A stretch of DNA of 64,000 nt from an uncultured Solirubrobacterales bacterium (GTDB lineage Bacteria > Actinomycetota > Thermoleophilia > Solirubrobacterales > Solirubrobacteraceae), in assembly GCA_963818795.1 (NCBI GenBank), contig CAWFTK010000002.1:504298-568297 (forward strand), read 5' to 3'. Both the position numbers and the translations under genes were made by a program. A model generated the notes under the pieces. The model was not told where the DNA came from, did no database searches, and saw only the letters and a program-made list of their open reading frames with translations. Within the stretch, counting starts at the first letter, position 1. Every line of letters starts with the position of its first letter. Below are positions 6,199-55,809 of this stretch, piece by piece.

Positions 6199-7532
6199 GC
6201 CCTCTCCAGCGCTGAGTGGGTCGCGGCCGACTGCAGCTCGCCGCGCTCGGCGAGCTCGCCGAGGACGGCGATCAGTGAATTCACTTCGGCGTCGGTGTTT
6301 GCCGCGGTGAGCTGCACGCGGAAGCCGACCTCCGCCTTGGGCACGAGCGGGTAGGCGGCGAGCGTCACGTAGATGCCGCGCTCGAACAGCAGTCGGCCGA
6401 CCTCGTCGATTCGGGTGTGCTCGCGCAGCGGAACCTCGATGATCGGTAGCTGCGAGCGATTGGGCGTGTGGGCATCGAGCTCGCCGAGCGCGTCCAGCAC
6501 GCGGACGCTGTGGCGATGCACGGTGCGGCGCAGCTCGTCTCCGCGGCGCTCGTTGACGTCGAAGCCCGCGAGTACCGTCGCCAGCGAGGCGATCGGCGAG
6601 GGGCCCGAATATAGATACGGAGGCGCGGCGACCTTCAAGAGGTTCTTGACCTCGGTCGGGCAGGCGATGAACGCGAGCAGCGAGGAGTACGCCTTGGAGA
6701 AGCCGCCGATGAGGACCACATCGTCGTAGCTCTCGCCGAAGTGGCGCACGATGCTGTTGCCGCGCGCGCCATAGGGGCACAGCTCACCGGGGCCGTGCTC
6801 GCCGATTACACCGAAGCCGTGAGCGTCGTCGACGTACAGCAGCGCGCCGTGGCGACGCGTCACCTCGGCGAACGCCCGCAGGTCCGGGGGATTGCCGGTC
6901 ATGCTGTTGACCCCGTCCATGCAGACCAGTCGCGCGCTGTCGCGCTCGGCTGTGAGCAGCTCGTCGAGATGATCGGGATCCTCGAAGCGGAAGCGACGGA
7001 CCGCGGCACCGCGCGCGCGTGCTACCTGGCAGCCGTCATACATCGTCTTGTGCGCACGCGCGTCGAGGAAGATCGTTCCGGAGGCAGCCAGCACCGGAAT
7101 CACCGAGCCGTGGATGTGCGTGATCGTCGGCAGTACCAGCGAGTCCTCGCAGCCGAGCAGCGCGGTGAGGCGCTCCTCGATTTGCTCGTAGAGGACCGGG
7201 CTGCCCAGCAGGCGCGACCAGCTGGGATGGGTGCCCCACTCCTCGAGGAACGCGGGAACCGCCTGGATGATCTCGGGGTCGAGATCGAAGCCGAGGTAGT
7301 TGCACGAGGCGAAGTCCGCGAGCCAGCGCTCCCCGACGCGGATCATGCGCCCGTCGATCTCGGCGATCACGGCGTCCATCATCGGATGCGCGGCGCGCAG
7401 TGCCTCGATGTCAGCTACGGACTCCAGCCAGTGGTCGATCCAGCGGCCGGCCGGCCGAGAGGCCACGGCGCGTCTGGAGCTAGTGCGTGGAGCGCTCGTA
7501 AGTGCGGGGTTGGAGGCCAGCGAAGATGACAT
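6195..7532 (-). CDS. PLP-dependent alpha-oxoamine synthase (serine palmitoyltransferase / KBL / BioF family)
   Basis: SCNYLGF substrate block, VDDAHGFGV, and the PLP lysine in GGFSKAYSS. ATG at 7532 (MSSSLASN). The longer track ORF to 7700 adds only low-complexity residues. Confidence 0.85.
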   Translation of the reverse strand: MSSSLASNPALTSAPRTSSRRAVASRPAGRWIDHWLESVADIEALRAAHPMMDAVIAEIDGRMIRVGERWLADFASCNYLGFDLDPEIIQAVPAFLEEWGTHPSWSRLLGSPVLYEQIEERLTALLGCEDSLVLPTITHIHGSVIPVLAASGTIFLDARAHKTMYDGCQVARARGAAVRRFRFEDPDHLDELLTAERDSARLVCMDGVNSMTGNPPDLRAFAEVTRRHGALLYVDDAHGFGVIGEHGPGELCPYGARGNSIVRHFGESYDDVVLIGGFSKAYSSLLAFIACPTEVKNLLKVAAPPYLYSGPSPIASLATVLAGFDVNERRGDELRRTVHRHSVRVLDALGELDAHTPNRSQLPIIEVPLREHTRIDEVGRLLFERGIYVTLAAYPLVPKAEVGFRVQLTAANTDAEVNSLIAVLGELAERGELQSAATHSALERA

Positions 7533-7751
7533 ATTCGAACGACCATCGGATCTCCGCAGCAATGCCTTGATAGTTGGGCGCTCAACTCGGCGTTTCACGC
7601 AGCGCGCGCACGCGGGGGCGCTGGGGGTGAGAGACAGCCGTCGCGAGGCCGTTTGAGCGTGCGAGCGGGTTCTCGGAGATGTGTGCCCTTGCGCACACAA
7701 GCGCTACAAATGCTCACCTAACCTGTTCCGGCTCGTCCAAGAGAGCATTTT

Positions 7752-7927
7752 TTCGCCGAGTCGTCTCCGTTGTTGGAGGCGGGCGGGGGCCCACTGCCGG
7801 GCCGCGATGAGGTGGCTCGGATGGGGCGAATCGGCCGTTGCTGTGGCCGTAACGCCAGGTCGGCGCACGCCTTCGTGCGCGCGAGGTGGCGTGAGCCCGA
7901 CAGCTAACCCCGTAGGCGTGGACTCAA
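7752..7927 (+). promoter_or_regulatory. c-di-AMP riboswitch (ydaO/yuaA class) in the 5' leader of the RlpA-like gene
   Basis: Conserved ydaO blocks are seen: GGGGGCCCA (about 7786), GGGGCGAAUC (about 7822) and CCCGACAGCUAACCCCGUAGGCGUGG (7895-7921). A closing helix GAGUC (7758-7762) / GACUC (7921-7925) abuts the SD AAGGAGG (7926-7932). Confidence 0.65.
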
Positions 7928-7935
7928 GGAGGAAT

Positions 7936-44475: not shown

Positions 44476-45717
44476 TCAGCCGTCCGCGAGCTCGACTAGC
44501 AACGCGTCCACCGCGTGCTCGTCGAGCTGCGTGCCTGCGACGCGGCGTAGCTCCGCGGTGGCCTCGACGGGCGTCCGCGCCGGTCGATAGGGGCGATCGG
44601 TGACGATCGCGTCGTAGGTGTCGCAGGCCGCGATGATGCGCGCCGCGAGCGGGATCTGCTCGCCCGCAAGACCATCCGGGTAGCCGCCCCCGTCCCAGCG
44701 CTCGTGACTCGCGCGGACCGCGGGCGCAAGGTGCGCGAAGGCGTCGATTCGCGCGACGAGGTCGCCGCCGCCGGCCGCGTGTGCGCGCATCACGACCCAC
44801 TCCTCATCCGTCAGCGGCCCGGCCTTCAGCAAGATCTCGCTGGGCACCGCGATCTTGCCGATGTCGTGGAGCATCGCCGCGTAGCGCACGTCGCGCGCTT
44901 GCGCGCGCGAGAGGCCCATCCGCAGCGCGACTCGCGCCGCGAGGCTCGCGACGTCCTCGCCATGGCAGGCCGTGTAGTCGTCCTTCGCCTCGACCGTGCT
45001 CGTGAGCGCCGCAAGGGTCGTGGTGAATGTGCGCTCCATATCGGCGAGCAGCCCCGCCCGGTGTACCGCCGCGCCGAGGCTCGCCGCAATCGTCTCGACG
45101 AGCACCGCATCGGCCTCCCCCAACGCGCCCGGCTCGACCGCCTCAATGTTGAGCACGCCCCACACCTCGCCATCGACAAAGATCGGCGCGCTCAGCTCCG
45201 AGCGCGGGTCGGTCTGGGGGTCACGCGCGATGTAGTCCGTATCGAGCTGCGTGTCAGGCACGAGCGCCGTGCTGCCCGAGCGCGCGACGCGACCGTTGAC
45301 CCCCACCGCGACGGGCTGCTCGACCAGCAGGAACTCGGTCATCACCTCCGCCAGTGGGCCCGCGCTTGCGATTAGGCGCAGCATCCCGTCACCGTCGAGG
45401 CGTTGCACGGCTGCTAGGTAAAAGGCAAACGTGCAGTGCAGCTCGTCGACGACCAGCCGCACCATATCCTCGATCTCCGTCGTAGCGGCAAGTCGCGCCG
45501 TGAGGTTTGCCGCCACGCGCAGCTGTGCCCGCAGGTAGCTGAGCTCGCCTGCGCTCGCCATTGTCTGTGCGCGCGTGTCGGCACGCTGGCGACGCAGCGC
45601 CTCGGCGCGCCGCTCGCGCTCGCGCGCGCCGGCCAGAGTCACGCCCCGTGGAGGCGTCTGCTTGCCGGCCGGCCCGGCGGGGGGCTTGACAGATAGCTGG
45701 GGCATCGCCGGTCGCAT
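44476..45717 (-). CDS. GAF-domain HD-GYP phosphohydrolase (probable c-di-GMP phosphodiesterase)
   Basis: HDIGKIAVP and HERWDGGGYPDG motifs, with a GAF-like region upstream. The start codon is uncertain. Confidence 0.85.
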   Translation of the reverse strand: MRPAMPQLSVKPPAGPAGKQTPPRGVTLAGARERERRAEALRRQRADTRAQTMASAGELSYLRAQLRVAANLTARLAATTEIEDMVRLVVDELHCTFAFYLAAVQRLDGDGMLRLIASAGPLAEVMTEFLLVEQPVAVGVNGRVARSGSTALVPDTQLDTDYIARDPQTDPRSELSAPIFVDGEVWGVLNIEAVEPGALGEADAVLVETIAASLGAAVHRAGLLADMERTFTTTLAALTSTVEAKDDYTACHGEDVASLAARVALRMGLSRAQARDVRYAAMLHDIGKIAVPSEILLKAGPLTDEEWVVMRAHAAGGGDLVARIDAFAHLAPAVRASHERWDGGGYPDGLAGEQIPLAARIIAACDTYDAIVTDRPYRPARTPVEATAELRRVAGTQLDEHAVDALLVELADG

Positions 45718-45756: not shown

Positions 45757-46695
45757 TTAGACGATCTGAGGGGTCCGCCGACCGCGTTCAATCCGGCGGC
45801 GCTCGACCGCTGCCACGCCCGCGAACTCCGCGGCACAGGAGCCGTATCTGAGCGTGTTAGGTACAAGCGGCCGCGTCAGGCGCCCCGCGGCGAGTGTCGC
45901 TGCGCATGCAGTGGCCTGTGCCCGCGTGTATCGCAGGCCGTAAAGCTCGCGCACCCGCGGCGGCAGCGAGCCGAGCAGCACCAGATCGTGCATTCGCTTG
46001 GCCAGCGCACGATTTGCCGACATCGGAATTTCAAAGGCCGAGGCGTAGCCCATGTAGCGGGCCTCCTCGGTGAGGAACAGGTCGGGGCCCGCGAGCTGAT
46101 CCTCATACCACGCGCGAAACGCGACATATGTCGCAGGCATCGCCGCGCGCGGAGTGCGAAAGAGCTCGGCGAAGCGCACGTAGTCCTGCCACAGCGCTTC
46201 AAGCTGCTCCTCGGCGAGGGTACGCACGAGATGCTCATAGAACCAGATCGCGGAGTCCGCGATCACCGCGACCGTCCACACCATCAGGTTCGGATCGAGC
46301 GCCGCGTAGGGAGTGCCGGCCGGATAATGCGCTCCGGCATCCTCGGGCAGCTCACCGACGACGCGCTCGTGCATGCGCTGCACAGCGCCGAGCACCTTAT
46401 CGGCCTCCTCGCGGGTGCCGAAGAAAACCGCCTCGAACATCGCCGCGGTGTGCGTGATACGTCGAAACGGTGTCGACTTGTTGCGTGTGTGCTCGCTGGT
46501 GCCCACGTAGTTCAGCGGCTTCACCGCGCCGATGCACAGCGCGCGCTGGCCATATAGGAGGCCCACCGCCTTCTCCTCGTGGACCGCTCGCAACATCGAG
46601 CGCCCACGTGGAAAGTATCCCTCGCCGGCCCCGCCGCCTGCCATAGCCTGAAGGTAGCGCATCCGCGTGCCACCGTGCAGGCACACTGGCTGCAC
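45757..46695 (-). CDS. oxygenase MpaB-family (DUF2236-like) protein
   Basis: 312-aa ORF with ordinary composition that resembles DUF2236 from memory. The start is uncertain. Confidence 0.6.
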   Translation of the reverse strand: MQPVCLHGGTRMRYLQAMAGGGAGEGYFPRGRSMLRAVHEEKAVGLLYGQRALCIGAVKPLNYVGTSEHTRNKSTPFRRITHTAAMFEAVFFGTREEADKVLGAVQRMHERVVGELPEDAGAHYPAGTPYAALDPNLMVWTVAVIADSAIWFYEHLVRTLAEEQLEALWQDYVRFAELFRTPRAAMPATYVAFRAWYEDQLAGPDLFLTEEARYMGYASAFEIPMSANRALAKRMHDLVLLGSLPPRVRELYGLRYTRAQATACAATLAAGRLTRPLVPNTLRYGSCAAEFAGVAAVERRRIERGRRTPQIV

Positions 46696-46749: not shown

Positions 46750-47406
46750 TCAGCTGACCAAGGTCAACAGGGTATGTGCGGGGACGCCGCGCGCCGCAAG
46801 GATGCACGTGTGTCCCGCCTCGCGCCAGGTCACCACCGTCGCACCGCTCGCGTCGAGCACGTCAAAGCGCACACCGCCGCGGTCGACCACCGTGCCCGCC
46901 GCGGGTGTCGGGAGGGGGCTGCCCGCGACGATTGCGTACCCGATGCGCTTCCCGTCGGGCGCGGTGTAGAAGACCGTCGTGATCGCGCGGCCCTCGAGAC
47001 GATCGGTACGTGCGCCAGCCGCCGGCCAACCGCGCTGCCCCCCCCAGTACGGGAAGCTCGTCCCTTCCACCGATCTCGCCAGCACCCCATGCTGGCGAGG
47101 GTTCTCCGCGGGGGCCGCGAGCTGCGCGGGCTCGAGCGCCACCCGCGCGGCCTCGAGCGCCGTCGGAGTGTGCGGCGAGCCGCCAGCCAATACGAGCAGC
47201 ACCGCTGCCGTAGCGCCCGCCGCCAGCGCTCCGGCGCCGGCCAATCGCAGAGCAGGTACACGCCGGCGCCGTCTGGGTGGGGCGCTGCCCACGAGCTGCT
47301 CAATCGAGCGGTGCAGCGAAGCCGGGGCGCATACGGCATCCAACGAGCGGATGCTCGCGAGCGTCTCCCGCTCGGCCTCGATATCGCTGGATTCTCTATG
47401 AGTCAT
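46750..47406 (-). CDS. putative anti-sigma factor (single-pass membrane protein)
   Basis: The start overlaps the ECF sigma stop by 11 nt. Layout is a cytoplasmic N-domain, one TM (AGALAAGATAAVLLVLAGG), then an extracytoplasmic domain. The call is mostly positional. Confidence 0.5.
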   Translation of the reverse strand: MTHRESSDIEAERETLASIRSLDAVCAPASLHRSIEQLVGSAPPRRRRRVPALRLAGAGALAAGATAAVLLVLAGGSPHTPTALEAARVALEPAQLAAPAENPRQHGVLARSVEGTSFPYWGGQRGWPAAGARTDRLEGRAITTVFYTAPDGKRIGYAIVAGSPLPTPAAGTVVDRGGVRFDVLDASGATVVTWREAGHTCILAARGVPAHTLLTLVS

Positions 47407-48034
47407 TGGCAGCCTCACCTGCAAGGACGCCACCGGCGCCGGCAAGCTTCCCACGCTGCGCAGCGCCGGTCGACTGTGAGCTGCGAGTCGCAGCCGGCAC
47501 CTGCGAGGTAGCCGGTGAGCTGGCGCCCTCGGTCTGCGCGCCTCGCCCGCGGTCGAGATTCTTCGCAAGTTGCTCGCGCGCCCGAAAGACGCGGGTCGCG
47601 ATCGTCGCCTCGCGGGTACCGAGTGCCTTGGCGGCCTCGCGGTAGGAGAGGCCCGCGACATCGACCGCGACAAGCGCCAGCCGGTGGTTCTCGGCGAGCT
47701 CGGAGATCGCGGAGAAGACTTCGCGTGTCTGCAGCGCCTCCTCGGGACGCTCACCGGTGCGGGGGTCCATCGGTTCGAGTTCCTCAAGCGTCGTCACCCC
47801 CGCGCGCGGCCGCCGCGCGGCTGTGCGGCGCTGTGTTAGAAAGGTGTTGCGTAGCGCCTGCATCAGGTACGCGAGCTCGTCCTGGCCACGCATGAGGCGG
47901 GGGCGCGCGAGGACACGCGAGAACGTCTCCTGCACGAGATCCTCGGCGTCGTGAGGCGAGCCGCAGAGCGCCCACGCGGCCCGGTACAGGCGATCTATGT
48001 GTTGGGGCAGCGACTGAGGGTCGAGCCGAGACAT
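47396..48034 (-). CDS. ECF (group 4) sigma factor
   Basis: Region 2 DAEDLVQETF and region 4 LSYREAAKALGTREATIATRVFRAREQL. ATG at 48034. Confidence 0.85.
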   Translation of the reverse strand: MSRLDPQSLPQHIDRLYRAAWALCGSPHDAEDLVQETFSRVLARPRLMRGQDELAYLMQALRNTFLTQRRTAARRPRAGVTTLEELEPMDPRTGERPEEALQTREVFSAISELAENHRLALVAVDVAGLSYREAAKALGTREATIATRVFRAREQLAKNLDRGRGAQTEGASSPATSQVPAATRSSQSTGAAQRGKLAGAGGVLAGEAANDS

Positions 48035-48190
48035 CCCTCGCACGACTGTAGCGGCATCGCACAGCCGGTTGGTGAGAGGGAAGTATGGGCGTGCTGGCGG
48101 CGTCTGGGATGGTGAGGCAGCCATACGCCCTCAAATCAAGACGGCAGGAGGTCGATAACTCGTGATCGAGGCCTACGAGAGGAGCACCAG

Positions 48191-48562
48191 ATGCGCAGGC
48201 AGGTAACCCATGCCGCGATCGCGCTCGGCGCCGTCGCGGCAATCGCGCTGCCCGCCGTCGCCGTGGGCGGCGTGAGCGCCGGTGGAGCGAGCGGCGGCGA
48301 CGGGCGCCTCGCCGGGAGCCACACGGTCGTGTTGAAAAACATTCGCTTCCACCCGAGCACGCTTTCGATCCGCAGCGGTGAAAGCGTGACTTGGCTCTGG
48401 CGCGACGAAGGCGTCGCGCACAATGTGACCGCGAGCAGTTTCCGCTCCCGCACACAGACCAATGGCTCATTCACCGTGCGCTTCACCCATGTCGGCACGT
48501 TCAACTACCGCTGTACGATTCACGCCGCCGAAGGGATGAGGGGCAAGGTTATCGTTCACTGA
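48191..48562 (+). CDS. secreted cupredoxin (type-1 blue copper protein)
   Basis: Signal peptide, then ligand pattern H (AHNV) ... C-x2-H-x4-M (CTIHAAEGM). SD GAGAGGAG lies upstream. Confidence 0.8.
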   Translation: MRRQVTHAAIALGAVAAIALPAVAVGGVSAGGASGGDGRLAGSHTVVLKNIRFHPSTLSIRSGESVTWLWRDEGVAHNVTASSFRSRTQTNGSFTVRFTHVGTFNYRCTIHAAEGMRGKVIVH

Positions 48563-48651
48563 TCCGTCCGGCAGGCACCAGCGGTGGTCGAGCAGGGATC
48601 ACTCGGCCACTGCCCCCCGGTGCACCTGCAAGTGCCGGCGCCCGCGGTTGG

Positions 48652-48858
48652 TCAGTCGCGACGCTGCTCGACCAGCAGTGCGAAGGTCGGGCATGCCTGC
48701 GCGGCGCGCTGCGCATGCGCGAGCAGCTCAGCCGAGAGCGGCTTTCCGTCGAGTACCGGATAGCCCCACTCGTCGAGGGAGATTCGCTCCGGCAGGAGCT
48801 CCGCGCACATTCCGTGCGCCTCGCACGCGATCGGATTCACGCGCAGGCGGTGTTTCAT
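48652..48858 (-). CDS. small ferredoxin, CxxHxxC...CP (3Fe-4S-type) motif
   Basis: 68 aa from the ATG at 48858: IACEAHGMC ... QACP. The start overlaps the upstream stop (ATGA). Confidence 0.7.
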   Translation of the reverse strand: MKHRLRVNPIACEAHGMCAELLPERISLDEWGYPVLDGKPLSAELLAHAQRAAQACPTFALLVEQRRD

Positions 48859-50222
48859 CTCGCGCTCACCGGCTCGCGCACCGTTCGGCCCGGCGAGCGT
48901 TTGGCAGCGGATGCACGCGGTCGGGGTAGCTCTGAGGGGCGCTCGCAGGCGGCACACGGACCGTGGCGTGCGTGATCGTCGAGCTCCTCGGCGAAGACCT
49001 CCAGGGCGCTGGAGACCAGGCGGGCGGCGCCGTCGGGATGGCTACAGGCGCCACGGCCGCGCACCAGTGAGCTGAGCGACGCCAACCGTCGCTGCGCCTG
49101 GGGCTCTGCGGTGCCGAGGACGAGTTGCTCGACGGTGTTCGCGATCGCATCGAGGCCGAAGAGGCAGGGGCCGCATTGGCGCGCGCTCTGCGAGGCAAGC
49201 CAGCGCGTCAGACGCGCGAGCTCGGCCACGGGGCACACCTCGTCGGAGAGCAGCACGATCACACCGGCGCCGAGCGAGGCGCCGTGGGGCGCGAGCTGCT
49301 CGTCGGAGAGTGCCACGCCATGCAGCAGGCCTCCGTCGACCCAGGCGCCGGCATAGCCCCCGAGCAGCAGTGCACGCGGCCGACCCGCGATGCCGCCCGC
49401 GGCATCGATCAAGGCCGGGAGCGGCGAGCCGAGCTCGATCTCGTAGACCCCCGGGTAGGCCAGCCCCGCGCCGGAGAGCGTAACCAGCGCCGAGCCCGGT
49501 TGCGAGGCGATTCCTAGCTCGCGAAACCAATCCGGTCCGTGGCGGGCGATCAACGCCATGTGCGCAAGTGTCTCCGCATTGCTGACCAGCGTCGGACGGC
49601 GACGCACCCCGCGCTCGAACGGCAGCGGCGGTGTGAACGTCGGGATCGCCGGGCCCCCGTTGAGGTGATTGACGAGCGCCGACTCCTGGCCCGCGACGTA
49701 GCGGTTAGGCACTGTCGCCAGCCGCACGCGGGGCGCGCCGCGGTGCCGGTGTGACGCGCGTTCGCTCAGCGCGTCGCTGACGTCCCGAAGTGCTCCGGTG
49801 GCCGTCTCGCAGACGCAGAGAACGATCTCATCGGCACCCACCGCGCGTGCGGCGAGCTCGCCGCCATCGAGGACGAGATGCGGAAGTGACAGCAGGGTGC
49901 GGTCCTTGAAGCTCGCCGGCTCACCCTCGGCCGCATTGACGACGACGATCGGACGCCCCCGCGCTCCGGCCACCGCCCGCAGCTTGGCGCCCGCCGGGAA
50001 ACCTCCGCCGCCGCGTCCGCGCAGCCCGGCGAGCTCCACCTGCTCGATTAGGGTCGCCGCCCCGCGGCGCTTGCGCCCGGTGAACGTGGGCAGCTCGCCA
50101 TGCAACGCGAGGTGCTCGCGCAGATTCAACGCTCCGTGTGCTGGCATCCCCGCCAACAGCCGCGGCAGGCCGGGCTCGGACTGTACGGCGCCCGCGCGCG
50201 CCTGCGCTTCGCCGAAGCTCAT
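48855..50222 (-). CDS. NuoF-like NAD(P)H-oxidising flavoprotein (FMN/NADH site, SLBB, Fe-S region)
   Basis: GLRGRGGGGFPAGAKL, VVNAAEGEPASFKDRTLL, NAETLAHMALI, then QCGPC ... GACSHPDG. ATG at 50222. Confidence 0.8.
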   Translation of the reverse strand: MSFGEAQARAGAVQSEPGLPRLLAGMPAHGALNLREHLALHGELPTFTGRKRRGAATLIEQVELAGLRGRGGGGFPAGAKLRAVAGARGRPIVVVNAAEGEPASFKDRTLLSLPHLVLDGGELAARAVGADEIVLCVCETATGALRDVSDALSERASHRHRGAPRVRLATVPNRYVAGQESALVNHLNGGPAIPTFTPPLPFERGVRRRPTLVSNAETLAHMALIARHGPDWFRELGIASQPGSALVTLSGAGLAYPGVYEIELGSPLPALIDAAGGIAGRPRALLLGGYAGAWVDGGLLHGVALSDEQLAPHGASLGAGVIVLLSDEVCPVAELARLTRWLASQSARQCGPCLFGLDAIANTVEQLVLGTAEPQAQRRLASLSSLVRGRGACSHPDGAARLVSSALEVFAEELDDHARHGPCAACERPSELPRPRASAAKRSPGRTVREPVSAR

Positions 50223-50956
50223 CGACTGCCACCGGACCCTTGTGTGCTGCTGCTCTTGTGACCTAGGAGTGCGGGCGGCGTGCCCGAGCGGCGCGCCCAT
50301 TCCGAGCCCAGCGGCCCACGGGGCAGCCACAGCAGCAAGCCAAGCGCGAAGATCGCGACCCCGCCGATTGCGGCGCCACGCCCGCGAGCGCTCGTGCCCG
50401 TCCACCCCGAGAGCGCGCGTGCGATCACGGCTGCCACGACCAGCGCCAGACACCCCACCGCTACCACCAGCAGCCACGAGCTCTTGACGTCGCTGCCCGT
50501 CCCCAGCGAGTGCAGCAGTGCGATTGGCCAGCACGCGTAGGCAAGCCAGTGCGTCGCTCGCCAGGCCGCGTGCCCGATGCGCTGGCGCAGGACGCTCGTC
50601 AGGATCAGCGCGAGCGTCAGATCGAAGGCGATCGCGCCGAGTCCTAGCCACAGGGGTCTGTAGCTGCTGATGAACGGCACGAATGCCGCGGTCAGCGAGA
50701 TCGGCGCGAAGCTGTCGAGCACCGCCGTCAGAATGTGCAGGACGAGGAAGATCAGCGCCAGCAGTGAGACGTTGCGATGCAGCGAATCGACGATGAAGCG
50801 CGGCCAGCTAGGTGTGCTCAGGCGCTGGACGTCGGCGATGCCGAGCGCCAGTGAGCCGGTGAGCAGCAGCAGCGCGACCGCCCCCGTGGAGCGGGTCAGA
50901 TACCAGTCGAGCTTCGAGCCGCTCGTCGTCGCGAGTGCGGGTAGAAGCGCGCTCAT
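50219..50956 (-). CDS. ferric-reductase-type (NOX/FRE/MsrQ-like) bis-heme transmembrane protein without a dehydrogenase domain
   Basis: About 6 TM helices. HRNVSLLALIFLVLH (H-x13-H) and HWLAYACWPIALLH (H-x12-H). ATGA overlaps at both ends. Confidence 0.7.
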   Translation of the reverse strand: MSALLPALATTSGSKLDWYLTRSTGAVALLLLTGSLALGIADVQRLSTPSWPRFIVDSLHRNVSLLALIFLVLHILTAVLDSFAPISLTAAFVPFISSYRPLWLGLGAIAFDLTLALILTSVLRQRIGHAAWRATHWLAYACWPIALLHSLGTGSDVKSSWLLVVAVGCLALVVAAVIARALSGWTGTSARGRGAAIGGVAIFALGLLLWLPRGPLGSEWARRSGTPPALLGHKSSSTQGSGGSR

Positions 50957-51960
50957 GCCGCATCGCTCAACTCTGAGCCGCACTCGGGCCTGGCGCTAGT
51001 GGGCCAGCCCGCGATATGCCGCACCCCGCCGCGATGGTCGACTAGTCGTGCCGGTAGCTCGCTTCGCTCCAGCCACGCCGCCACGGTGTCATCGCCCCGG
51101 ACGAGCGTCGCGGTGCTCGCGATATTCGCGTCCGTGCAATCCGCAGCGGCCACGCTCACGGTTCGCCAGGCGCCGCTGGCCGGTATACCCGTGTCCGGAT
51201 CGATGATGTGGTGCATGCTCGTGCCGCCGCGGCGCCAGCGGCGTGTGACGGTGCTCGAGGTCGCAATGCCACCGGAGAAAATCGCGATCGTCTGGCCGGG
51301 TGCCTGGGGGCCGGCTCGATGGTCGTCGGTTACGTGGATACGCCAGCCATCGACCGGAGCGCTCCCGGCAGTCGCGATATCGCCGCCGATGCCGAGAAGC
51401 ACGCCACAGTCGCATGCCGCGCTGGCGGCGGTCGCGGCACGATCGGCGGCCCACGCTTTGGCGCTCGCGCCTAGGTCGAGCGCGATCCCGCGGGGAATGC
51501 GAACGCTCGCCGTGGCGGCATCGAGCTCAACGGTCTCCCAGCCCCTGCATATCCGCGCCTGGACGGTCGCCACGCGTGGGCGCAGCGGATCGGTCGCGAC
51601 GTCCGTCGCGATGGGCTCCAGTAGCCGCCAGTCACGGTCATAGCCAGCGAGTACCAGTGCCGCTCCGACCGTCGGGTCGACGGCACCCTCGGTTAGCTCG
51701 GCGGCGCGCAACGCGATCTGCAGTGCCTCGATTAGCAGCGAGGCGACCCGCACCGCGCGCCCACCCGCGTGCGCGTTCACGCGCGTGAGATCGGAGTCCG
51801 CACGAAATCGGCTGCACGCGCGATCGATCGCGTCGAGCTCGGCGGCCACCACGCCTCGCGCGCGGGCAAGACATAGGGGGTCGCTCACGCGCAGAACAAC
51901 GCTCGTGGCAAATGCTTCCCAGCGCGCCGTCGCGAGGCCCTTCTCGCACAAAGCGCTCAT
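50953..51960 (-). CDS. apbE: FAD:protein FMN transferase (ApbE family)
   Basis: AVDPTVG, ALDLGASAKAWAAD, GGIATS and HHIIDPDTG motifs. Confidence 0.85.
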   Translation of the reverse strand: MSALCEKGLATARWEAFATSVVLRVSDPLCLARARGVVAAELDAIDRACSRFRADSDLTRVNAHAGGRAVRVASLLIEALQIALRAAELTEGAVDPTVGAALVLAGYDRDWRLLEPIATDVATDPLRPRVATVQARICRGWETVELDAATASVRIPRGIALDLGASAKAWAADRAATAASAACDCGVLLGIGGDIATAGSAPVDGWRIHVTDDHRAGPQAPGQTIAIFSGGIATSSTVTRRWRRGGTSMHHIIDPDTGIPASGAWRTVSVAAADCTDANIASTATLVRGDDTVAAWLERSELPARLVDHRGGVRHIAGWPTSARPECGSELSDAA

Positions 51961-52478
51961 GATCCGCCGGAGGTTACCGGCGCCGATTCCTGAGTTGGCG
52001 CACTGGAGGTTTCCGGGGCCGGCGCCGATTCCCGGGCCGGTGCCGATTCTTGCGCCGGCGCGGATGTTTCAGCCGGAGTGGATTCCGGTGCGGGCGCCGA
52101 TTCTTGCGCGGGAGCGGATTCCTGCGTAGGGGTCGATTGCTGAGATGGCGTTTCTGCTTGCGGGGCGGCGGCTTCTCGGGAAGGAACGCTGGTCGTCGGC
52201 GTTTCGCTCGATCGCGGTTTCTGGGCGGGGGGCTTCAGTGCTCCGCTGGCGCGGCTTGCGCTCCCGCGGGCCGTGCTGCCGGGACGCGTTGCGCTGTTGG
52301 CGGCCCCCGCAGTGGCGGCTCTGCCTGGGAAGGCGTTCGCGGCGACCGCCGTGAACGCACCCGTAAGCGCCGCGCTACCGGCGATCAGCCAGCGGTTGAG
52401 ACGGCCCAGGCGACGCAGCGCGGCGTCACGGGTGCGGGTGCTGTGCGGGTTTTGAGTTGGGGGAGTCTCGTGGCTCAT
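51957..52478 (-). CDS. membrane-anchored low-complexity (Pro/Ser/Thr/Ala/Glu repeat) protein
   Basis: One TM helix (WLIAGSAALTGAFTAVAANAF) followed by a tail with degenerate (Q/P)ESAPA repeats. The stop overlaps the apbE start. Confidence 0.5.
   Translation of the reverse strand: MSHETPPTQNPHSTRTRDAALRRLGRLNRWLIAGSAALTGAFTAVAANAFPGRAATAGAANSATRPGSTARGSASRASGALKPPAQKPRSSETPTTSVPSREAAAPQAETPSQQSTPTQESAPAQESAPAPESTPAETSAPAQESAPARESAPAPETSSAPTQESAPVTSGGS
51975..52154 (-). repeat. degenerate in-frame tandem repeats encoding QESAPA / PESTPA / RESAPA units
   Basis: Visible at DNA level as repeated gccgattc(c/t)(t/c)g.g..gg units and at protein level as ...TQESAPAQESAPAPESTPAETSAPAQESAPARESAPAPETSSAPTQESAP. 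Confidence 0.7.
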
Positions 52479-52638
52479 GGCGGATGACTTGGAAGGAGCT
52501 GTCCATCAGTGTGCAACGGGAGATAAAGCAGCGACTAAAGGAGGTGTGAGAAGTTCCATAGAACTTGGCTGGATTGAGGCCTACATCTGTGCCCCATCTC
52601 CGGCCAGTACACCGGCGCTCGCGGCCTCTCTGTCGGTG

Positions 52639-53391
52639 TCAGTGAAAGTGGTGGTAGCCCAGCCACGAGCCGTACTGAGGGATCAGCGCCAGCGCTAGCA
52701 CAAGCCCTGCCACGAGCGCCGCGCTGAGCGATAGGACGCGCCCACCGCGGCCCGCTCCTACGGCTGAGTTCTCCAGCCGAGCCGCGGGCGTCGCGCTCGC
52801 GAAGATCGCTCCGCGCACCTTCCGGTCACTGCTGAGCGCGCGCTGGATCTCCGGCAGATGCCCGAGCACGTGGATCGCAGTGACCGCGATCCAGAGAATG
52901 AAGCTTACCTTGTGGACCAGCAGCAGCGAGCTCCGCGAGCTCGGGCCCAGCAACAGCAGCGCGACACCGCTGGCGAACACGACAAGCGTGCTCAGCACGA
53001 CCAGCGGGGCCAACATCCTGAGGACCGGCGCGGGGGCGCCCTTGCGCCGATAGCGCGGCTCGCGCGTGTAATAGCGCATGAATCGATAGCCAGTGCTGGC
53101 GAGCTTCAGCGCCACTGGTCCGATCAGCAGCAAGCCGACGAACAGGTGAACCCAAAGCAGCTGACCGATGCGCAGGATCGTCACGCCGAGCACCGCCAGC
53201 AGCACGATCAGAACGAGGCCCGTCAGGACGGTGAGTTGCTCGTTGCCATCGGTGCTACCGGCGCTCAGGCGCGCGATCCACGACCGCCGCGAGCCCGCCG
53301 TCGGGGGCGACCGGCGTCGCGGACCGGCGGATGCTGAGCCCACCCGCGGACGCGCGGAGCCGCGCGGGGGTGTGACCGGGGGGCTATCCAT
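52639..53391 (-). CDS. hypothetical 4-TM membrane protein with conserved-looking intramembrane histidines
   Basis: LLWVHLFVGLLLIGPVALK, LLLVHKVSFILWIAVTAIHVLGH. The family is not recognised. Confidence 0.5.
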   Translation of the reverse strand: MDSPPVTPPRGSARPRVGSASAGPRRRSPPTAGSRRSWIARLSAGSTDGNEQLTVLTGLVLIVLLAVLGVTILRIGQLLWVHLFVGLLLIGPVALKLASTGYRFMRYYTREPRYRRKGAPAPVLRMLAPLVVLSTLVVFASGVALLLLGPSSRSSLLLVHKVSFILWIAVTAIHVLGHLPEIQRALSSDRKVRGAIFASATPAARLENSAVGAGRGGRVLSLSAALVAGLVLALALIPQYGSWLGYHHFH

Positions 53392-53501
53392 CTAAGCGAG
53401 TGTCGGCTCGATCCTTAAGAACCCAATAATCGCTTGATGAGAAGCCTCTTGGACTTGCTCGAGGCGTGGCTCGCCCGTAGCGATGGTCCTATGCTGGGGC
53501 G

Positions 53502-54221
53502 ATGGCGCCTCCCGCGGAGCCGGCCCGTGAGCCGACGATGGCGCCGGCGATCCTCGTCATCGAGGACGAGCCGGGAATCGTCGACTTCGTGCGACGTGGC
53601 CTGGAGGCGGAGGGCTTTCAGGTTCAAGCCGAGCTGGATGGGGCCGAGGGCGAGCGGCGCGCGCTGCGCGAGAGCTTCGACGCGGTCGTGCTCGATCTGA
53701 TGCTTCCCAATCGCGGCGGTCTGGAGATACTGGCGTCGTTGCACGCCGCCAAGCCGAGCCTGCCGGTGATCGTGCTCACCGCGAAAGGCGACGTCGAGGA
53801 TCGCGTCGCGGGCCTCGACGCCGGCGCGGTCGACTATCTCGTCAAGCCGTTCTCGCTGGCCGAGCTGCTGGCGCGGGTGCGCGCTCAGCTGCGGGCCGCA
53901 ACCCAGCAGGGGGCGGCGACTGTGCTCAGTGGCGAGGACATCGAGGTCGACTTGCTCACACGCAAGGTGCAGCGTGCCGGCGTTCCCGTGCTGCTATCGA
54001 GCACCGAGTTCGAACTGCTCGTCTATCTGCTGCGCCATCAAGGCCGCGTGCTCTCACGCGAGCAGATCCTGAGTGCGGTTTGGGGCTACCAGCACGACCC
54101 GGCGACCAACATCGTGGATGTCTACGTCGGCTATCTGCGTCGCAAGCTGAGCCGGCCCGAGAGCCCCGCGCCAATCCACACTGTGCGCGCCGTCGGCTAT
54201 CGCCTCGGTCATGCCGGCTGA
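53502..54221 (+). CDS. OmpR-family response regulator
   Basis: Receiver domain (ILVIEDE, VVLDLMLP, VIVLTAK) plus winged-helix domain (LSSTEFELLVYLL...VYVGYLRRKL...TVRAVGYRL). Confidence 0.9.
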   Translation: MAPPAEPAREPTMAPAILVIEDEPGIVDFVRRGLEAEGFQVQAELDGAEGERRALRESFDAVVLDLMLPNRGGLEILASLHAAKPSLPVIVLTAKGDVEDRVAGLDAGAVDYLVKPFSLAELLARVRAQLRAATQQGAATVLSGEDIEVDLLTRKVQRAGVPVLLSSTEFELLVYLLRHQGRVLSREQILSAVWGYQHDPATNIVDVYVGYLRRKLSRPESPAPIHTVRAVGYRLGHAG

Positions 54222-55809
54222 CCGCGCTGGGATGCCCGTCGCTCGCCGGACCAGGGTCGATCGCGCGCCGCGCGGCCTGCGACTGCCGCCCGGACTGCGC
54301 TGGCGGCTGGCGGCCTGGGTCGCGCTGGTCGTGCTGCTCTCCTCCGCGATCACCTTCGTCGTGGTCTATCGCGGAACCGGTACACAGCTGCGCACGCAGA
54401 TTGACCAGGAGATCCAGGGCGACGCGGGCGAGCTTGCGCAGGCGCTGAAGACCGCGGGCGTGCGTACACCAGCCGGGCTCGCCGCCGCCGCCGAGCGCTA
54501 CATCCGTGGCCAGCCGTTTAGTGCCAGCTCGACCCTGCTGTTCGTGCAGGTTCCTGGCGCCGGCACCAGCACGAACCGGCCCGAGCTATTCGGCGATTTC
54601 AGGCCTGACAATGGCGAGAGCGCCACCGAGCAGGCCCAGGAGAACCGCCTCTCGCAAGGCTTGCTGAGGGCCCTCCCAGGCCATTCGACGCTCGACCTGC
54701 CCGATATCGGCGACCTGCGACTGCTCAAGCAGGTCGTCCGAATTCCGGGCAGTGGGCGCGCTCGAGTCGGTAAACGGGTGACGGTTGGTGTGGGGGAGCC
54801 GCTGGCGAGCGTCGCGCATGCACAGCGCGGTGTCGCACGGGCGTTCATCCTGGCCGGCTTCCTCACGCTGCTCGGCGCGCTACTCGGCTCGCTGCTGATC
54901 GGCACGCGCGTCTCACGTCCGCTGCGGCGGATGGCGGCGGTCGCCGCGCAGGTCGACGCCGGCGATCTGCACCCACGCATCCACGACGTCGGCCGCGAGG
55001 GCGAGGAGGTGCGGGTGCTCGCCGATGCCTTCAACCACATGCTCGACCGTCTCACCGACGCCTTCGCCGGCCAGCGCGCGTTCGTAGCGGACGCCTCGCA
55101 CGAGCTGCGAACGCCGCTGACCGTAATCCGTGGTCAGCTCGAAGTACTCGCCACCCAAGCGCATCCACAGGCGGCCGAGGTACGCCGCGTCGAGCGCCTC
55201 GTGCAGGCCGAGGTGGCGCGCATCACGAGGCTCGTCGACGACTTGCTGCTGCTCGCCAAGAGCGAGCAGACCCAGTTCCTGCGACTCGAGCCGATCGAGC
55301 TCGAGCGCTTCGTGGGAGAGCTCTGGGATGGCATGACCCTCTTAGGCCAGGAGCGCCGCTTCGAGCTCGGCGACGTGCCGCGCGGGACGTTGATCGCCGA
55401 CCCCGATCGCCTCGCGCAGACGCTGCGCAATCTCGTTGGCAACGCGATCGAGCATACGATGCCGCCGAGCGGCCTCGTGCGCCTGGACGTCGAGAACAGC
55501 CCGGGCGGTCGGCTGCGTTTCACCATGCAAGACGACGGAGCCGGCATTCCACCTGACCAGCGCGAGCGGATCTTCGACCGCTTTTATCGCACCGACGCGG
55601 CGCGGGACCGCGCCTCGGGAGGGACGGGTCTCGGTCTCGCGATCGTCCGCGCGATCGTCGAGGCGCACGGCGGGCGGGTGCATGCCGGAGCGAGCTTCGG
55701 TGGCGGCGCACGCATCGATCTCGAACTGCCTCGATTCACTCCATCCGCCAGCGACACCGCCGCCGGGCCGAGCCTGGCGCGCACCTCGATCCGCGCCGCC
55801 GACCGTTAA
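54211..55809 (+). CDS. sensor histidine kinase (2 TM, HAMP, HisKA, HATPase_c)
   Basis: H-box SHELRTPLT, N-box NLVGNAIEHT, G-boxes DDGAGI and GGTGLGLAIV. The start overlaps the regulator stop. Confidence 0.9.
   Translation: MPADRAGMPVARRTRVDRAPRGLRLPPGLRWRLAAWVALVVLLSSAITFVVVYRGTGTQLRTQIDQEIQGDAGELAQALKTAGVRTPAGLAAAAERYIRGQPFSASSTLLFVQVPGAGTSTNRPELFGDFRPDNGESATEQAQENRLSQGLLRALPGHSTLDLPDIGDLRLLKQVVRIPGSGRARVGKRVTVGVGEPLASVAHAQRGVARAFILAGFLTLLGALLGSLLIGTRVSRPLRRMAAVAAQVDAGDLHPRIHDVGREGEEVRVLADAFNHMLDRLTDAFAGQRAFVADASHELRTPLTVIRGQLEVLATQAHPQAAEVRRVERLVQAEVARITRLVDDLLLLAKSEQTQFLRLEPIELERFVGELWDGMTLLGQERRFELGDVPRGTLIADPDRLAQTLRNLVGNAIEHTMPPSGLVRLDVENSPGGRLRFTMQDDGAGIPPDQRERIFDRFYRTDAARDRASGGTGLGLAIVRAIVEAHGGRVHAGASFGGGARIDLELPRFTPSASDTAAGPSLARTSIRAADR

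Follow-up and report, generated by a model that had tools for sequence, protein, structure and literature searches.

An operon conserved in soil Solirubrobacterales for the probable transfer of NAD(P)H electrons through a two-heme protein and across the membrane

Why would a bacterium keep a ferric-reductase-like membrane protein, a flavin transferase, and a relative of NuoF in one tightly packed row of genes? This question is raised by a 64,000-nucleotide (nt) stretch of DNA from an uncultured Solirubrobacterales bacterium (GenBank assembly GCA_963818795.1, contig CAWFTK010000002.1, positions 504,298 to 568,297 of the forward strand), which we call the window. An initial annotation proposed that five open reading frames (ORFs) in the window encode a split, NOX-like module for transmembrane electron transfer. 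We confirmed that the observation is real and that the genes form a conserved functional unit. The likely role of this operon in soil Solirubrobacterales is to pass electrons from NAD(P)H through a two-heme protein to the other side of the membrane. The earlier interpretation was right in outline, but it overstated the novelty of the system, included neighbors that are not conserved, and overlooked the C-terminus of the first protein (g1). The heptapeptide at this terminus is the most distinctive feature of the operon. The five genes, in order, are:

51957–52478, minus strand: g1, 173 amino acids (aa), with an anchor helix, a linker, and a C-terminal heptapeptide
51960–51980, minus strand: the codons for the heptapeptide of g1 (P-V-T-S-G-G-S), directly preceding the stop codon that overlaps the start of ApbE
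50953–51960, minus strand: ApbE-family FAD:protein FMN transferase (FAD stands for flavin adenine dinucleotide and FMN for flavin mononucleotide), 335 aa, PF02424
50219–50956, minus strand: ferric-reductase-domain (FRD) protein, 245 aa, six helices, PF01794, with invariant histidines
48855–50222, minus strand: NuoF-like NAD(P)H/FMN/Fe-S flavoprotein, 455 aa, with Complex1_51K, SLBB, and NADH_4Fe-4S domains
48652–48858, minus strand: single-cluster ferredoxin, 68 aa, Fer4_15, with the motif C-E-A-H-G-M-C...C-P

These ORFs run from 52478 to 48652 and are joined by four ATGA start/stop overlaps (at 51957–51960, 50953–50956, 50219–50222, and 48855–48858), exactly as first described. The G+C content of third codon positions is 0.68 in the low-complexity gene for g1 and 0.78–0.84 in the other four. 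Searches with Pfam profiles agreed with the original assignments of the ApbE, ferric-reductase-type, NuoF-like, and ferredoxin ORFs. The ApbE, Ferric_reduct, Complex1_51K, NADH_4Fe-4S, and Fer4_15 profiles all scored above their cutoffs; SLBB was just under (26.7 bits, with a cutoff of 27).

We scanned species-representative genomes with the FRD protein and found at least 597 loci. The best 80 of these, all from Solirubrobacterales, were used for synteny, by comparing the window proteins to the loci with tblastn. We found syntenic copies of g1 and of the NuoF-like protein in 75/80 loci each, and of ApbE and of the ferredoxin in 74/80 each. The five-gene arrangement, which had been noticed in the window alone, is co-linear in about 74 of the 80 related loci and is not due to chance. 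Two further components of the neighborhood are conserved: a membrane protein with four invariant histidines (TM4His; 63/80 loci) and a divergent pair of an OmpR-type regulator and a histidine kinase (68/80 loci). From these counts, the conserved unit is the divergent pair (kinase ← regulator) followed by TM4His → g1 → ApbE → FRD → NuoF-like → ferredoxin. The best explanation for this region is that it is a six-gene operon under the adjacent OmpR-type two-component system. Besides the five genes above, the unit contains:

52639–53391, minus strand: TM4His, 250 aa, five-helix membrane protein, first gene of the unit
53413–53443, minus strand: operator/promoter-like motif in the divergent intergenic region between the regulator and TM4His
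53502–54221, plus strand: OmpR-family response regulator, divergent, with Response_reg and Trans_reg_C domains
54211–55809, plus strand: sensor histidine kinase, with HAMP, HisKA, and HATPase_c domains

The placement of the FRD protein in the ferric-reductase family stands: it matches PF01794 (Ferric_reduct) with 29.4 bits (cutoff 28), its paralogs score 34–44 bits, and 91 of 99 diverse relatives match this family as well. We found more than 4,500 homologs in a 90%-clustered protein database, and the closest of these are from metagenome-assembled genomes of Solirubrobacteraceae. The protein has two bis-histidine pairs, H60/H74 (H-x13-H) and H136/H149 (H-x12-H), as first noted. All four histidines are invariant across 30 close homologs and 99 representatives at 39–54% identity. 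This spacing had been ascribed to the NOX/FRE/MsrQ family. The pattern of two bis-histidine pairs is indeed that of NOX and FRE, but the protein is not of the MsrQ type, since both pairs are present. MsrQ and STEAP proteins lack one pair and bind one heme and a non-covalent flavin (PMC12525009). Because it retains both pairs, the FRD protein is assigned by its ligands to the di-heme NOX/FRE type, and the label "MsrQ-like", which is used for such proteins below, reflects the Pfam family only. The protein is thus predicted to bind two b-type hemes, with H60/H136 as the ligands of the inner heme and H74/H149 as the ligands of the outer heme.

The NOX proteins (SpNOX, csNOX5) and yeast FRE proteins likewise have two bis-histidine b hemes on two helices with 13/12 spacing, and they share with the FRD protein the arginine-rich loops ahead of each first histidine. 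Unlike them, the FRD protein lacks the C-terminal FAD/NADPH dehydrogenase domain that defines NOX proper. It also lacks NOX helix h1, because the histidine-bearing helices are the second and the fourth. Instead, a sixth helix is added after the equivalent of h6, followed by a tail that is predicted to lie outside and, in most relatives, by a beta-rich domain. Nor is the protein an MsrQ (YedZ) proper: both histidine pairs are kept, and no MsrP-like gene is among the conserved neighbors. The lack of a fused dehydrogenase domain was recognized initially, and Pfam shows the same for the 99 relatives: neither they nor the window protein carry a fused domain for binding FAD or NAD, or an FMN_bind domain. 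Because of this, the partners of the FRD protein must act in trans.

Positive charges alternate between the loops of the FRD protein. There are on average 3.0, 3.7, and 3.3 Lys or Arg residues on loops 1–2, 3–4, and 5–6, versus 1.3, 1.0, and 0.9 on the N-terminus and on loops 2–3 and 4–5. The predicted topology is therefore N-out/C-out, with the conserved C-terminal tail (WLPxGPLGSEWARRSGTPxxLLxH) on the outer side. The tail motif could be located in 72 of the 99 representatives, and 56 of these have more than 80 residues beyond it. In the long forms that we examined, these residues comprise a linker rich in S/P/T and then a beta-rich domain of about 110 residues, without a Pfam match or a flavinylation motif. 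Examples are L043:7980-9125, L054:7995-9107, L067:7926-9110, and L075:5604-6746 (locus and positions). The beta-rich domain is absent from the window protein, which is a short form. A profile of the FRD family had no match among PDB sequences. The AlphaFold2 (AF2) model of the FRD protein had a mean predicted local distance difference test score (pLDDT) of 53 and was not used for a fold search.

We also noticed that one metagenomic representative, P0372 (644 aa), is an apparent in-frame fusion of the FRD protein to the NuoF-like protein, and that it includes the sixth helix and the RAGTP tail. P0372 may instead be an artefact of assembly or gene calling. Two other sequences, P0267 and P0299, are plainly chimeras or carry frameshifts.

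That a dehydrogenase is supplied in trans, by the NuoF-like protein and the ferredoxin, is the natural reading, as was first proposed, given how consistently both are syntenic with FRD. The NuoF-like protein matches Complex1_51K with 112.9 bits and NADH_4Fe-4S with 57.2 bits, and it retains the conserved loops for binding FMN (GRGGxxFP) and NADH (NxxEGEPxxxKD). These domains and loops are common to NuoF of complex I and to the RnfC-type SLBB flavoproteins. Membership in the NuoF family, as originally suggested, holds at the level of domains but not beyond: the protein scores just 210 bits against the NuoF equivalog TIGR01959 (cutoff 559), the four-cysteine N3 motif is altered, and we found no NuoE, NuoG, or other nuo genes beside it in the window or in the 80 loci. 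We therefore call it NuoF-like rather than NuoF, on the basis of its sequence. In all of the orthologs that we examined, the N3 motif reads QS[AT]xQCGPC (QSARQCGPC in the window), so that the first cysteine is replaced by Ala or Thr. The fourth N3 cysteine is retained in the window protein, as seen by alignment to Nqo1 of T. thermophilus (2FUG). The pattern GAC[AS]HPDG matches roughly half of the orthologs (by regular expression). Also, the NuoF-like proteins have an extra conserved CxxC near the C-terminus, which complex I NuoF does not, and in the window it is preceded by H-x-x-H-G-P. Because of the altered N3 motif and the extra CxxC, the type of cluster or its ligation may differ from that of NuoF.

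The ferredoxin matches Fer4_15 with 38.7 bits (cutoff 22.4), and 73 of 74 orthologs contain CxAHGxC...CP. By motif and family, it belongs to the CXXHXXC(X)nCP class of [3/4Fe-4S] ferredoxins, which has been described for the partners of mycobacterial P450s (PMC6237146).

How does this unit compare to known systems? In E. coli, Fre and MsrQ form a split, two-component NOX-like system (Juillan-Binard et al. 2017, as cited in PMC12525009), which gives the notion of a split NOX a characterized precedent. As in Fre-MsrQ-MsrP, the operon has an FRD cytochrome without a fused dehydrogenase that would be fed from a separate cytosolic flavoprotein. The two differ in that MsrQ has one heme and a flavin, while the operon's protein keeps both histidine pairs; the donor is Fre in E. 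coli and would be the NuoF-like protein with the ferredoxin in the operon; and the E. coli system includes the molybdoenzyme MsrP, with no counterpart among the operon's conserved neighbors.

Clusters of a similar kind were catalogued by Méheust et al. (2021, eLife, PMC8238504), who described 1,797 "MsrQ-like" PF01794 flavinylation clusters, mostly from Actinobacteria. Typically, apbE is accompanied there by an FMN_bind gene; a fused NAD-binding domain occurs in 1,437 of the clusters. In 31 clusters there is a NuoF-like (PF10589) protein, which was presumed to be the entry point for NAD(P)H. It has been proposed that the MsrQ-like clusters take electrons from NAD(P)H in the cytosol and pass them to a covalently bound, extracytosolic flavin. 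Flavinylation-associated MsrQ-like clusters also appear in Huang et al. (2024, mSystems, PMC11334425). In the literature that we searched, only Méheust et al. (2021) report the combination of a ferric reductase, NuoF, and ApbE. The initial annotation knew of no characterized system with this composition. It is true that no MsrQ-like flavinylation cluster, or system of the operon's composition, has been experimentally characterized, but the architecture was already catalogued in 2021, in one sentence and without experiments. One of the conditions that the initial annotation had set for its own refutation, an existing description of the same architecture, therefore applies in part.

The operon and the MsrQ-like clusters have in common a six-helix, two-heme PF01794 protein that is clustered with apbE, mainly in Actinobacteria. 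The operational definition, with PF01794 within a few genes of apbE or FMN_bind, also fits the operon, as ApbE is immediately upstream with a 4-nt overlap. The resemblance to the 31 clusters with NuoF-like proteins is by their published description only. On the other hand, Méheust et al. required a signal peptide or lipidation site on ApbE or the FMN_bind protein, and by inspection, the operon's ApbE has neither. Where the MsrQ-like clusters typically have an FMN_bind gene, the operon does not, and all that g1 has to offer is its terminal heptapeptide. Nor is there any mention of the ferredoxin, of TM4His, or of a two-component system for the MsrQ-like clusters. In the literature that we searched, we found no description of a domain-less g1 with a terminal motif, of the signal-less ApbE seen here, of an N3 site altered in this way, of TM4His, or of a ferredoxin or two-component system dedicated to such a unit.

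The remaining two proteins of the initial five are ApbE and g1. ApbE matches PF02424 with 172.7 bits (cutoff 25.6), aligns to solved structures of ApbE/Ftp proteins in PDB (E = 4e-22 to 1e-11), and has both the HHIIDP and DLGAxAK motifs. The gene for g1 immediately precedes apbE, to which it is translationally coupled in the window. The protein was initially described as membrane-anchored and of low complexity. This is correct, but the description missed an invariant C-terminal heptapeptide that resembles the motif recognized by ApbE.

Statistics for the motif and linker of g1 are from 71 orthologs. At the N-terminus, the juxtamembrane segment and helix have the consensus RDAALRRLxRxNRWLIAGSxALTGxxxxVAAxAFPG, with 80–100% conservation per position. 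Next is a hypervariable, disordered linker of 83–178 aa (median 115) that is rich in S/A/P/T/E. The protein ends with [ST]G[AG][ST] in 68/71 orthologs (SGGS in 67 and SGAS in 1). The column entropy is at most 0.8 bit across the last seven positions (P-V-[VT]-S-G-G-S), versus 1.7–3.0 bits just upstream. Among the proteins of the operon, only g1 has a conserved motif of this type.

Substrates of ApbE contain the motif D-x-x-[S/T]-G-A-[S/T]; the minimum is seven residues, the last of which is modified, and seven-residue tags are flavinylated best at the terminus of a protein (PMC12052999). The heptapeptide of g1 agrees with this motif in part: it has the [S/T]-G-x-[S/T], the length of seven residues, and the terminal position, but Gly in place of Ala and no Asp. 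Its terminal serine is a candidate site for flavinylation by ApbE. The closest analogy may be the engineered Flavin-tag (Tong et al. 2021, as reviewed in PMC12052999), for which, according to that review, a terminal seven-residue motif that ends in the modified Ser or Thr is sufficient. The Flavin-tag (DxxSGAT) is artificial, whereas the PV[VT]SGGS ending of g1 is natural. The known classes of ApbE substrates (FMN_bind, NqrB/RnfD, DUF2271, DUF3570, Flavodoxin_4, and FMN reductase or FMN_red) are all folded domains. In the literature searched, we found no report of a natural ApbE substrate that is disordered or domain-less, or of a natural motif at the terminus. Proteins like g1 would escape the published surveys because those were based on domains and filtered by signal peptides.

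The g1 family had no match in Pfam or NCBIfam, even with E values up to 10, and no known flavinylated domain. Permissive scans of g1 and TM4His with Pfam and PADLOC gave only sub-threshold noise. A search with the N-terminus of g1 returned just 8 close fragments and no distant relatives. One locus has tandem copies of g1 (L015:5985-6464 and 6560-7003) with unrelated linkers and a shared anchor, and both end with VVSGGS.

We considered two other interpretations of g1. A programmed frameshift could fuse g1 to ApbE and yield an anchored, secreted ApbE, but the spacing from the g1 stop to the ApbE start varies from -42 to +113 nt and includes all three frames, and g1 is also found without ApbE. 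A cleavable or Tat (twin-arginine translocation) signal peptide is contradicted by the conservation of the helix and juxtamembrane segment, while the would-be mature part is hypervariable, and by NRW instead of RR before the helix. There are traits of g1 that resemble a signal peptide (AxA-FPG in 69/71 orthologs and an RR in 55/71). We treat the N-terminal helix as an anchor and subunit helix, but this is not settled.

Taken together with the comparisons above, we give about an even chance to the reading that the operon encodes an NAD(P)H-driven transmembrane chain of the flavinylation-associated FRD kind, which ends on FMN bound to g1. In this chain, NAD(P)H would be oxidized at the FMN of the cytoplasmic NuoF-like flavoprotein, and single electrons would pass via its modified Fe-S site to the CxxHxxC...CP ferredoxin. 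The ferredoxin would reduce the inner heme b of the FRD protein, and the electrons would then cross the membrane to the outer heme. From there they would pass to an FMN that ApbE had attached covalently to the terminal serine of g1. The conserved helix would hold g1 in the complex, and the flavin would be on a flexible tether of about 115 residues, which might allow it to reach into or across the cell wall. Candidates for the final acceptor are O2, Fe(III) or Cu(II), compounds like quinones, and a protein of the envelope that is encoded elsewhere. The order of the genes, the identities of the domains, the invariant ligands and motifs, and the synteny are observed, whereas the cofactors, the direction in which electrons flow, the flavinylation of g1, the side on which its tail lies, and the part played by TM4His are inferred. 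This reading is supported by the clusters of Méheust et al., which are of the same class and use an FMN-binding protein as the extracytosolic acceptor of an MsrQ-like cytochrome. It is also supported by the tail of the FRD protein, which is predicted to be outside and to continue into the linker and beta-rich domain in most relatives, and by the operator-like motif that is conserved in the divergent promoter region (described below). More tentatively, and at somewhat less than an even chance, we propose that g1 is a natural "flavin-tag": a domain-less ApbE substrate of a new class, held in the FRD complex by its helix, whose disordered tether, of variable length (about 55–180 residues), would let a single FMN, esterified to its last serine, shuttle between the outer heme and acceptors within the cell wall of these monoderm Actinomycetota or outside it. 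ApbE would act in the cytoplasm, before export of the tail.

Several observations weigh against a chain that ends on flavinylated g1, and some of them concern the motif. The heptapeptide departs from that of known substrates at two or three positions: Gly takes the place of Ala at -1, Ser that of the preferred Thr at the end, and the Asp at -6 is missing, although replacing this Asp (D→A) has only a minor effect in known substrates (PMC12052999). Two clusters that lack ApbE (L043 and L075) retain SGGS on g1. These points, along with the lack of a known flavinylated domain, favor the alternative that g1 is not flavinylated at all. In that case, PVVSGGS could be a docking or sorting peptide, for instance for the tail of the FRD protein or for TM4His, and g1 would be a structural or regulatory subunit. 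ApbE would serve a substrate that is encoded elsewhere, or flavin trafficking.

Two other clusters without ApbE bear on both readings. In L051 and L055, which are paralogous clusters, g1 ends with VVTATS and not VVSGGS, which supports the flavinylation of g1. This co-variation between the terminus of g1 and ApbE rests on one lineage and is suggestive. Conversely, that PVV is kept with TATS, and that SGGS persists in the other two ApbE-less clusters, suggests a role for the tail beyond flavinylation. (The diverged g1 paralogs, L051:7334-7978 and L055:7311-7997, retain the anchor and linker and end with APVVTATS.) Still, we think it unlikely that g1 is not flavinylated: in most loci, g1 lies next to ApbE and is translationally coupled to it, no other protein in the operon has a conserved motif of this kind, and the conserved block, with Ser as its last residue, spans exactly seven residues, like the minimal motif. 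Also, the same logic, of an orphan apbE beside a gene with a motif, correctly predicted the substrates DUF2271 and DUF3570.

The other objections concern sidedness and structure. Because no ortholog of ApbE has an export signal, the enzyme is probably cytoplasmic. By inspection, we found no signal peptide, hydrophobic N-terminal segment, or lipobox in the window protein or its orthologs, all of which start about 12–25 residues ahead of the first beta-strand. If the target residue is outside, then flavinylation would have to precede export. The charges flanking the helix of g1 differ little between its N side (+3.8) and its C side (+3.2), so the orientation of g1 in the membrane is ambiguous, and the 35 residues past the helix are basic. 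The fusion protein P0372, if genuine, would back a functional link between FRD and NuoF but would contradict the C-out topology of the FRD protein; it is a single metagenomic sequence. Clustering of the ORFs of the 80 loci did not identify a conserved terminal reductase or oxidase near the operon. Finally, the AF2 models of the FRD protein and TM4His are of low confidence, so structural support for the chain is lacking.

Many of these points would also fit a flavinylated tail that is in the cytoplasm. In this alternative, the tail of g1 is an FMN arm that swings between the NuoF-like protein or ferredoxin and the FRD protein, and the outer heme reduces an external acceptor directly, as in NOX and FRE. 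This would be a covalent version of the shuttling of FMN between Fre and MsrQ: in E. coli, FMN has been proposed to move between a pocket of MsrQ and Fre (PMC12525009). Cytosolic ApbEs are known (PMC12052999), which fits with the missing export signals. An FRD of the NOX type does not depend on a partner outside the cytoplasm, and the loci encode no conserved one near the operon. The possible FRD-NuoF fusion also fits with an arm on the cytoplasmic side. However, the N-terminal segment of g1, with about five arginines, would then need to be translocated. A third flavin seems redundant, as an FMN loop is retained in the NuoF-like protein and the inner heme could be within direct reach of the ferredoxin. 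The long linker of g1, with its S/A/P/T/E composition, is more typical of extracytoplasmic tethers that span the wall, and the flavinylated partner is extracytosolic in the MsrQ-like systems that have been described. Overall, we consider the cytoplasmic arm rather unlikely, and prefer a chain that ends on the outer side.

Flavinylation-associated FRD systems are widespread in Actinobacteria and none has been characterized. The unit described here is compact and well defined, and is therefore open to reconstitution. Should g1 carry FMN on its heptapeptide, then substrates of ApbE need not be folded domains, surveys that are based on domains miss such proteins, and g1 would be a natural counterpart of the engineered Flavin-tag. 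Monoderm soil bacteria might in that case use such a "cofactor on a string" to send electrons beyond the membrane. The NuoF-like protein with its altered N3 site and the unannotated TM4His family are further targets for study.

TM4His has invariant histidines at H82, H160, H174, and H178, with the spacing H160-x13-H174, and conserved motifs GNERLT and KLxSTGYRFxRYY. All of its 3,646 homologs are annotated as hypothetical, and none has a Pfam domain. The charges on the loops place H82 and H160 in the outer leaflet, according to the predicted topology. The AF2 model of TM4His has a mean pLDDT of 66, and a Foldseek search with this model against PDB found nothing with E below 0.9. We considered if TM4His is a relative of the FRD protein, but hhalign finds the two families to be unrelated. 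A heme b or metal site in TM4His is plausible, and the family could be a new cytochrome b or a metal-binding subunit.

Across the loci, TM4His usually ends about 10 nt before g1 or overlaps it. Where the operon has been rearranged (L005, L043, and L065), TM4His remains beside the regulator/kinase pair. In function, TM4His may be part of the operon or of the two-component module. The sensor kinase has two transmembrane segments and an extracytoplasmic region of about 150 aa.

The intergenic region between the regulator and TM4His contains a conserved motif, which is probably an operator or promoter. The consensus for the family is GAGcTTTCTCAT-N6-GTTA-N8-9-CTTAG-N~11-ACACT. Of 57 regulator-TM4His intergenic regions, 42 have the TTCTCAT core, and it is in register there with the blocks GTTA, CTTAG, and ACACT. 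The copy in the window is TTCTCATCAAGCGATTATTGGGTTCTTAAGG, and it is the only match within the window.

The regulatory genes raise a further alternative: the module might be mainly for signaling. The membrane proteins would then be a NOX-like or redox-sensing complex whose output (such as reactive oxygen species, or the redox state of heme or flavin) is read by the adjacent kinase, with no bulk transfer of electrons. The tight linkage to the two-component pair, the persistence of TM4His beside that pair in rearranged loci, the conserved operator motif, and the lack of a terminal enzyme encoded nearby all agree with this. However, ordinary transcriptional control of the operon explains the linkage equally well, and the sequence of the kinase (HAMP-HisKA-HATPase) has no sign of heme, flavin, or PAS sensing. 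We consider a mainly signaling role to be very unlikely, and we favor an electron-transfer chain whose expression is controlled by the pair.

Clustering all of the other ORFs of the 80 loci did not identify any further conserved partner of the operon. The commonest extra neighbor is a gene on the opposite strand, which, by eye and from one sequence, looks like a DNA glycosylase of the HhH (helix-hairpin-helix) type. An Rfam scan of 48400–53700 of the window found no match (including to the FMN riboswitch). A scan for sigma-70 promoters and intrinsic terminators found none of these. The window has a 160-nt gap between TM4His and g1 (52479–52638) that is specific to this genome and has somewhat lower G+C; RNA structure within this gap was not significant (z = 0.5).

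In four loci (L042:3526-6639, L056:3692-6745, L068:3555-6647, and also L073), about 4.7–4.9 kb is inserted between g1 and ApbE. Its products are a prenyltransferase of the UbiA family, an oxidase with FAD_binding_4, and a short-chain dehydrogenase. This trio is reminiscent of the mycobacterial genes for decaprenyl-phospho-arabinose (UbiA/DprE1/DprE2).

The initial annotation also described a neighborhood with an envelope-redox theme. Pfam agrees with the identities that it gave to the neighbors (a cupredoxin with Copper-bind, a sigma factor of the ECF type, a regulator of the OmpR type, and a kinase with HAMP, HisKA, and HATPase domains). As for the theme, the histidine-rich membrane protein and the OmpR/kinase pair are conserved, but two of the neighbors are lineage-specific:

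48191–48562, plus strand: cupredoxin (Copper-bind), syntenic in 5/80 loci
46750–48124, minus strand: ECF (extracytoplasmic function) sigma factor (Sigma70_r2/r4) and anti-sigma pair, syntenic in 10/80 loci

The cupredoxin and the ECF pair are confined to the closest relatives and are not part of the conserved unit. Beyond the ECF pair, on the minus strand, are an MpaB/Lcp-family oxygenase-like protein (45757–46695; in 1/80 loci) and a GAF and HD-GYP-type (HD_5) protein (44476–45717; in 3/80 loci). Elsewhere in the window, and unrelated to the operon, there is a cyclic di-AMP riboswitch at 7744–7933 on the plus strand (Rfam RF00379, 45.5 bits, with a gathering threshold of 38).

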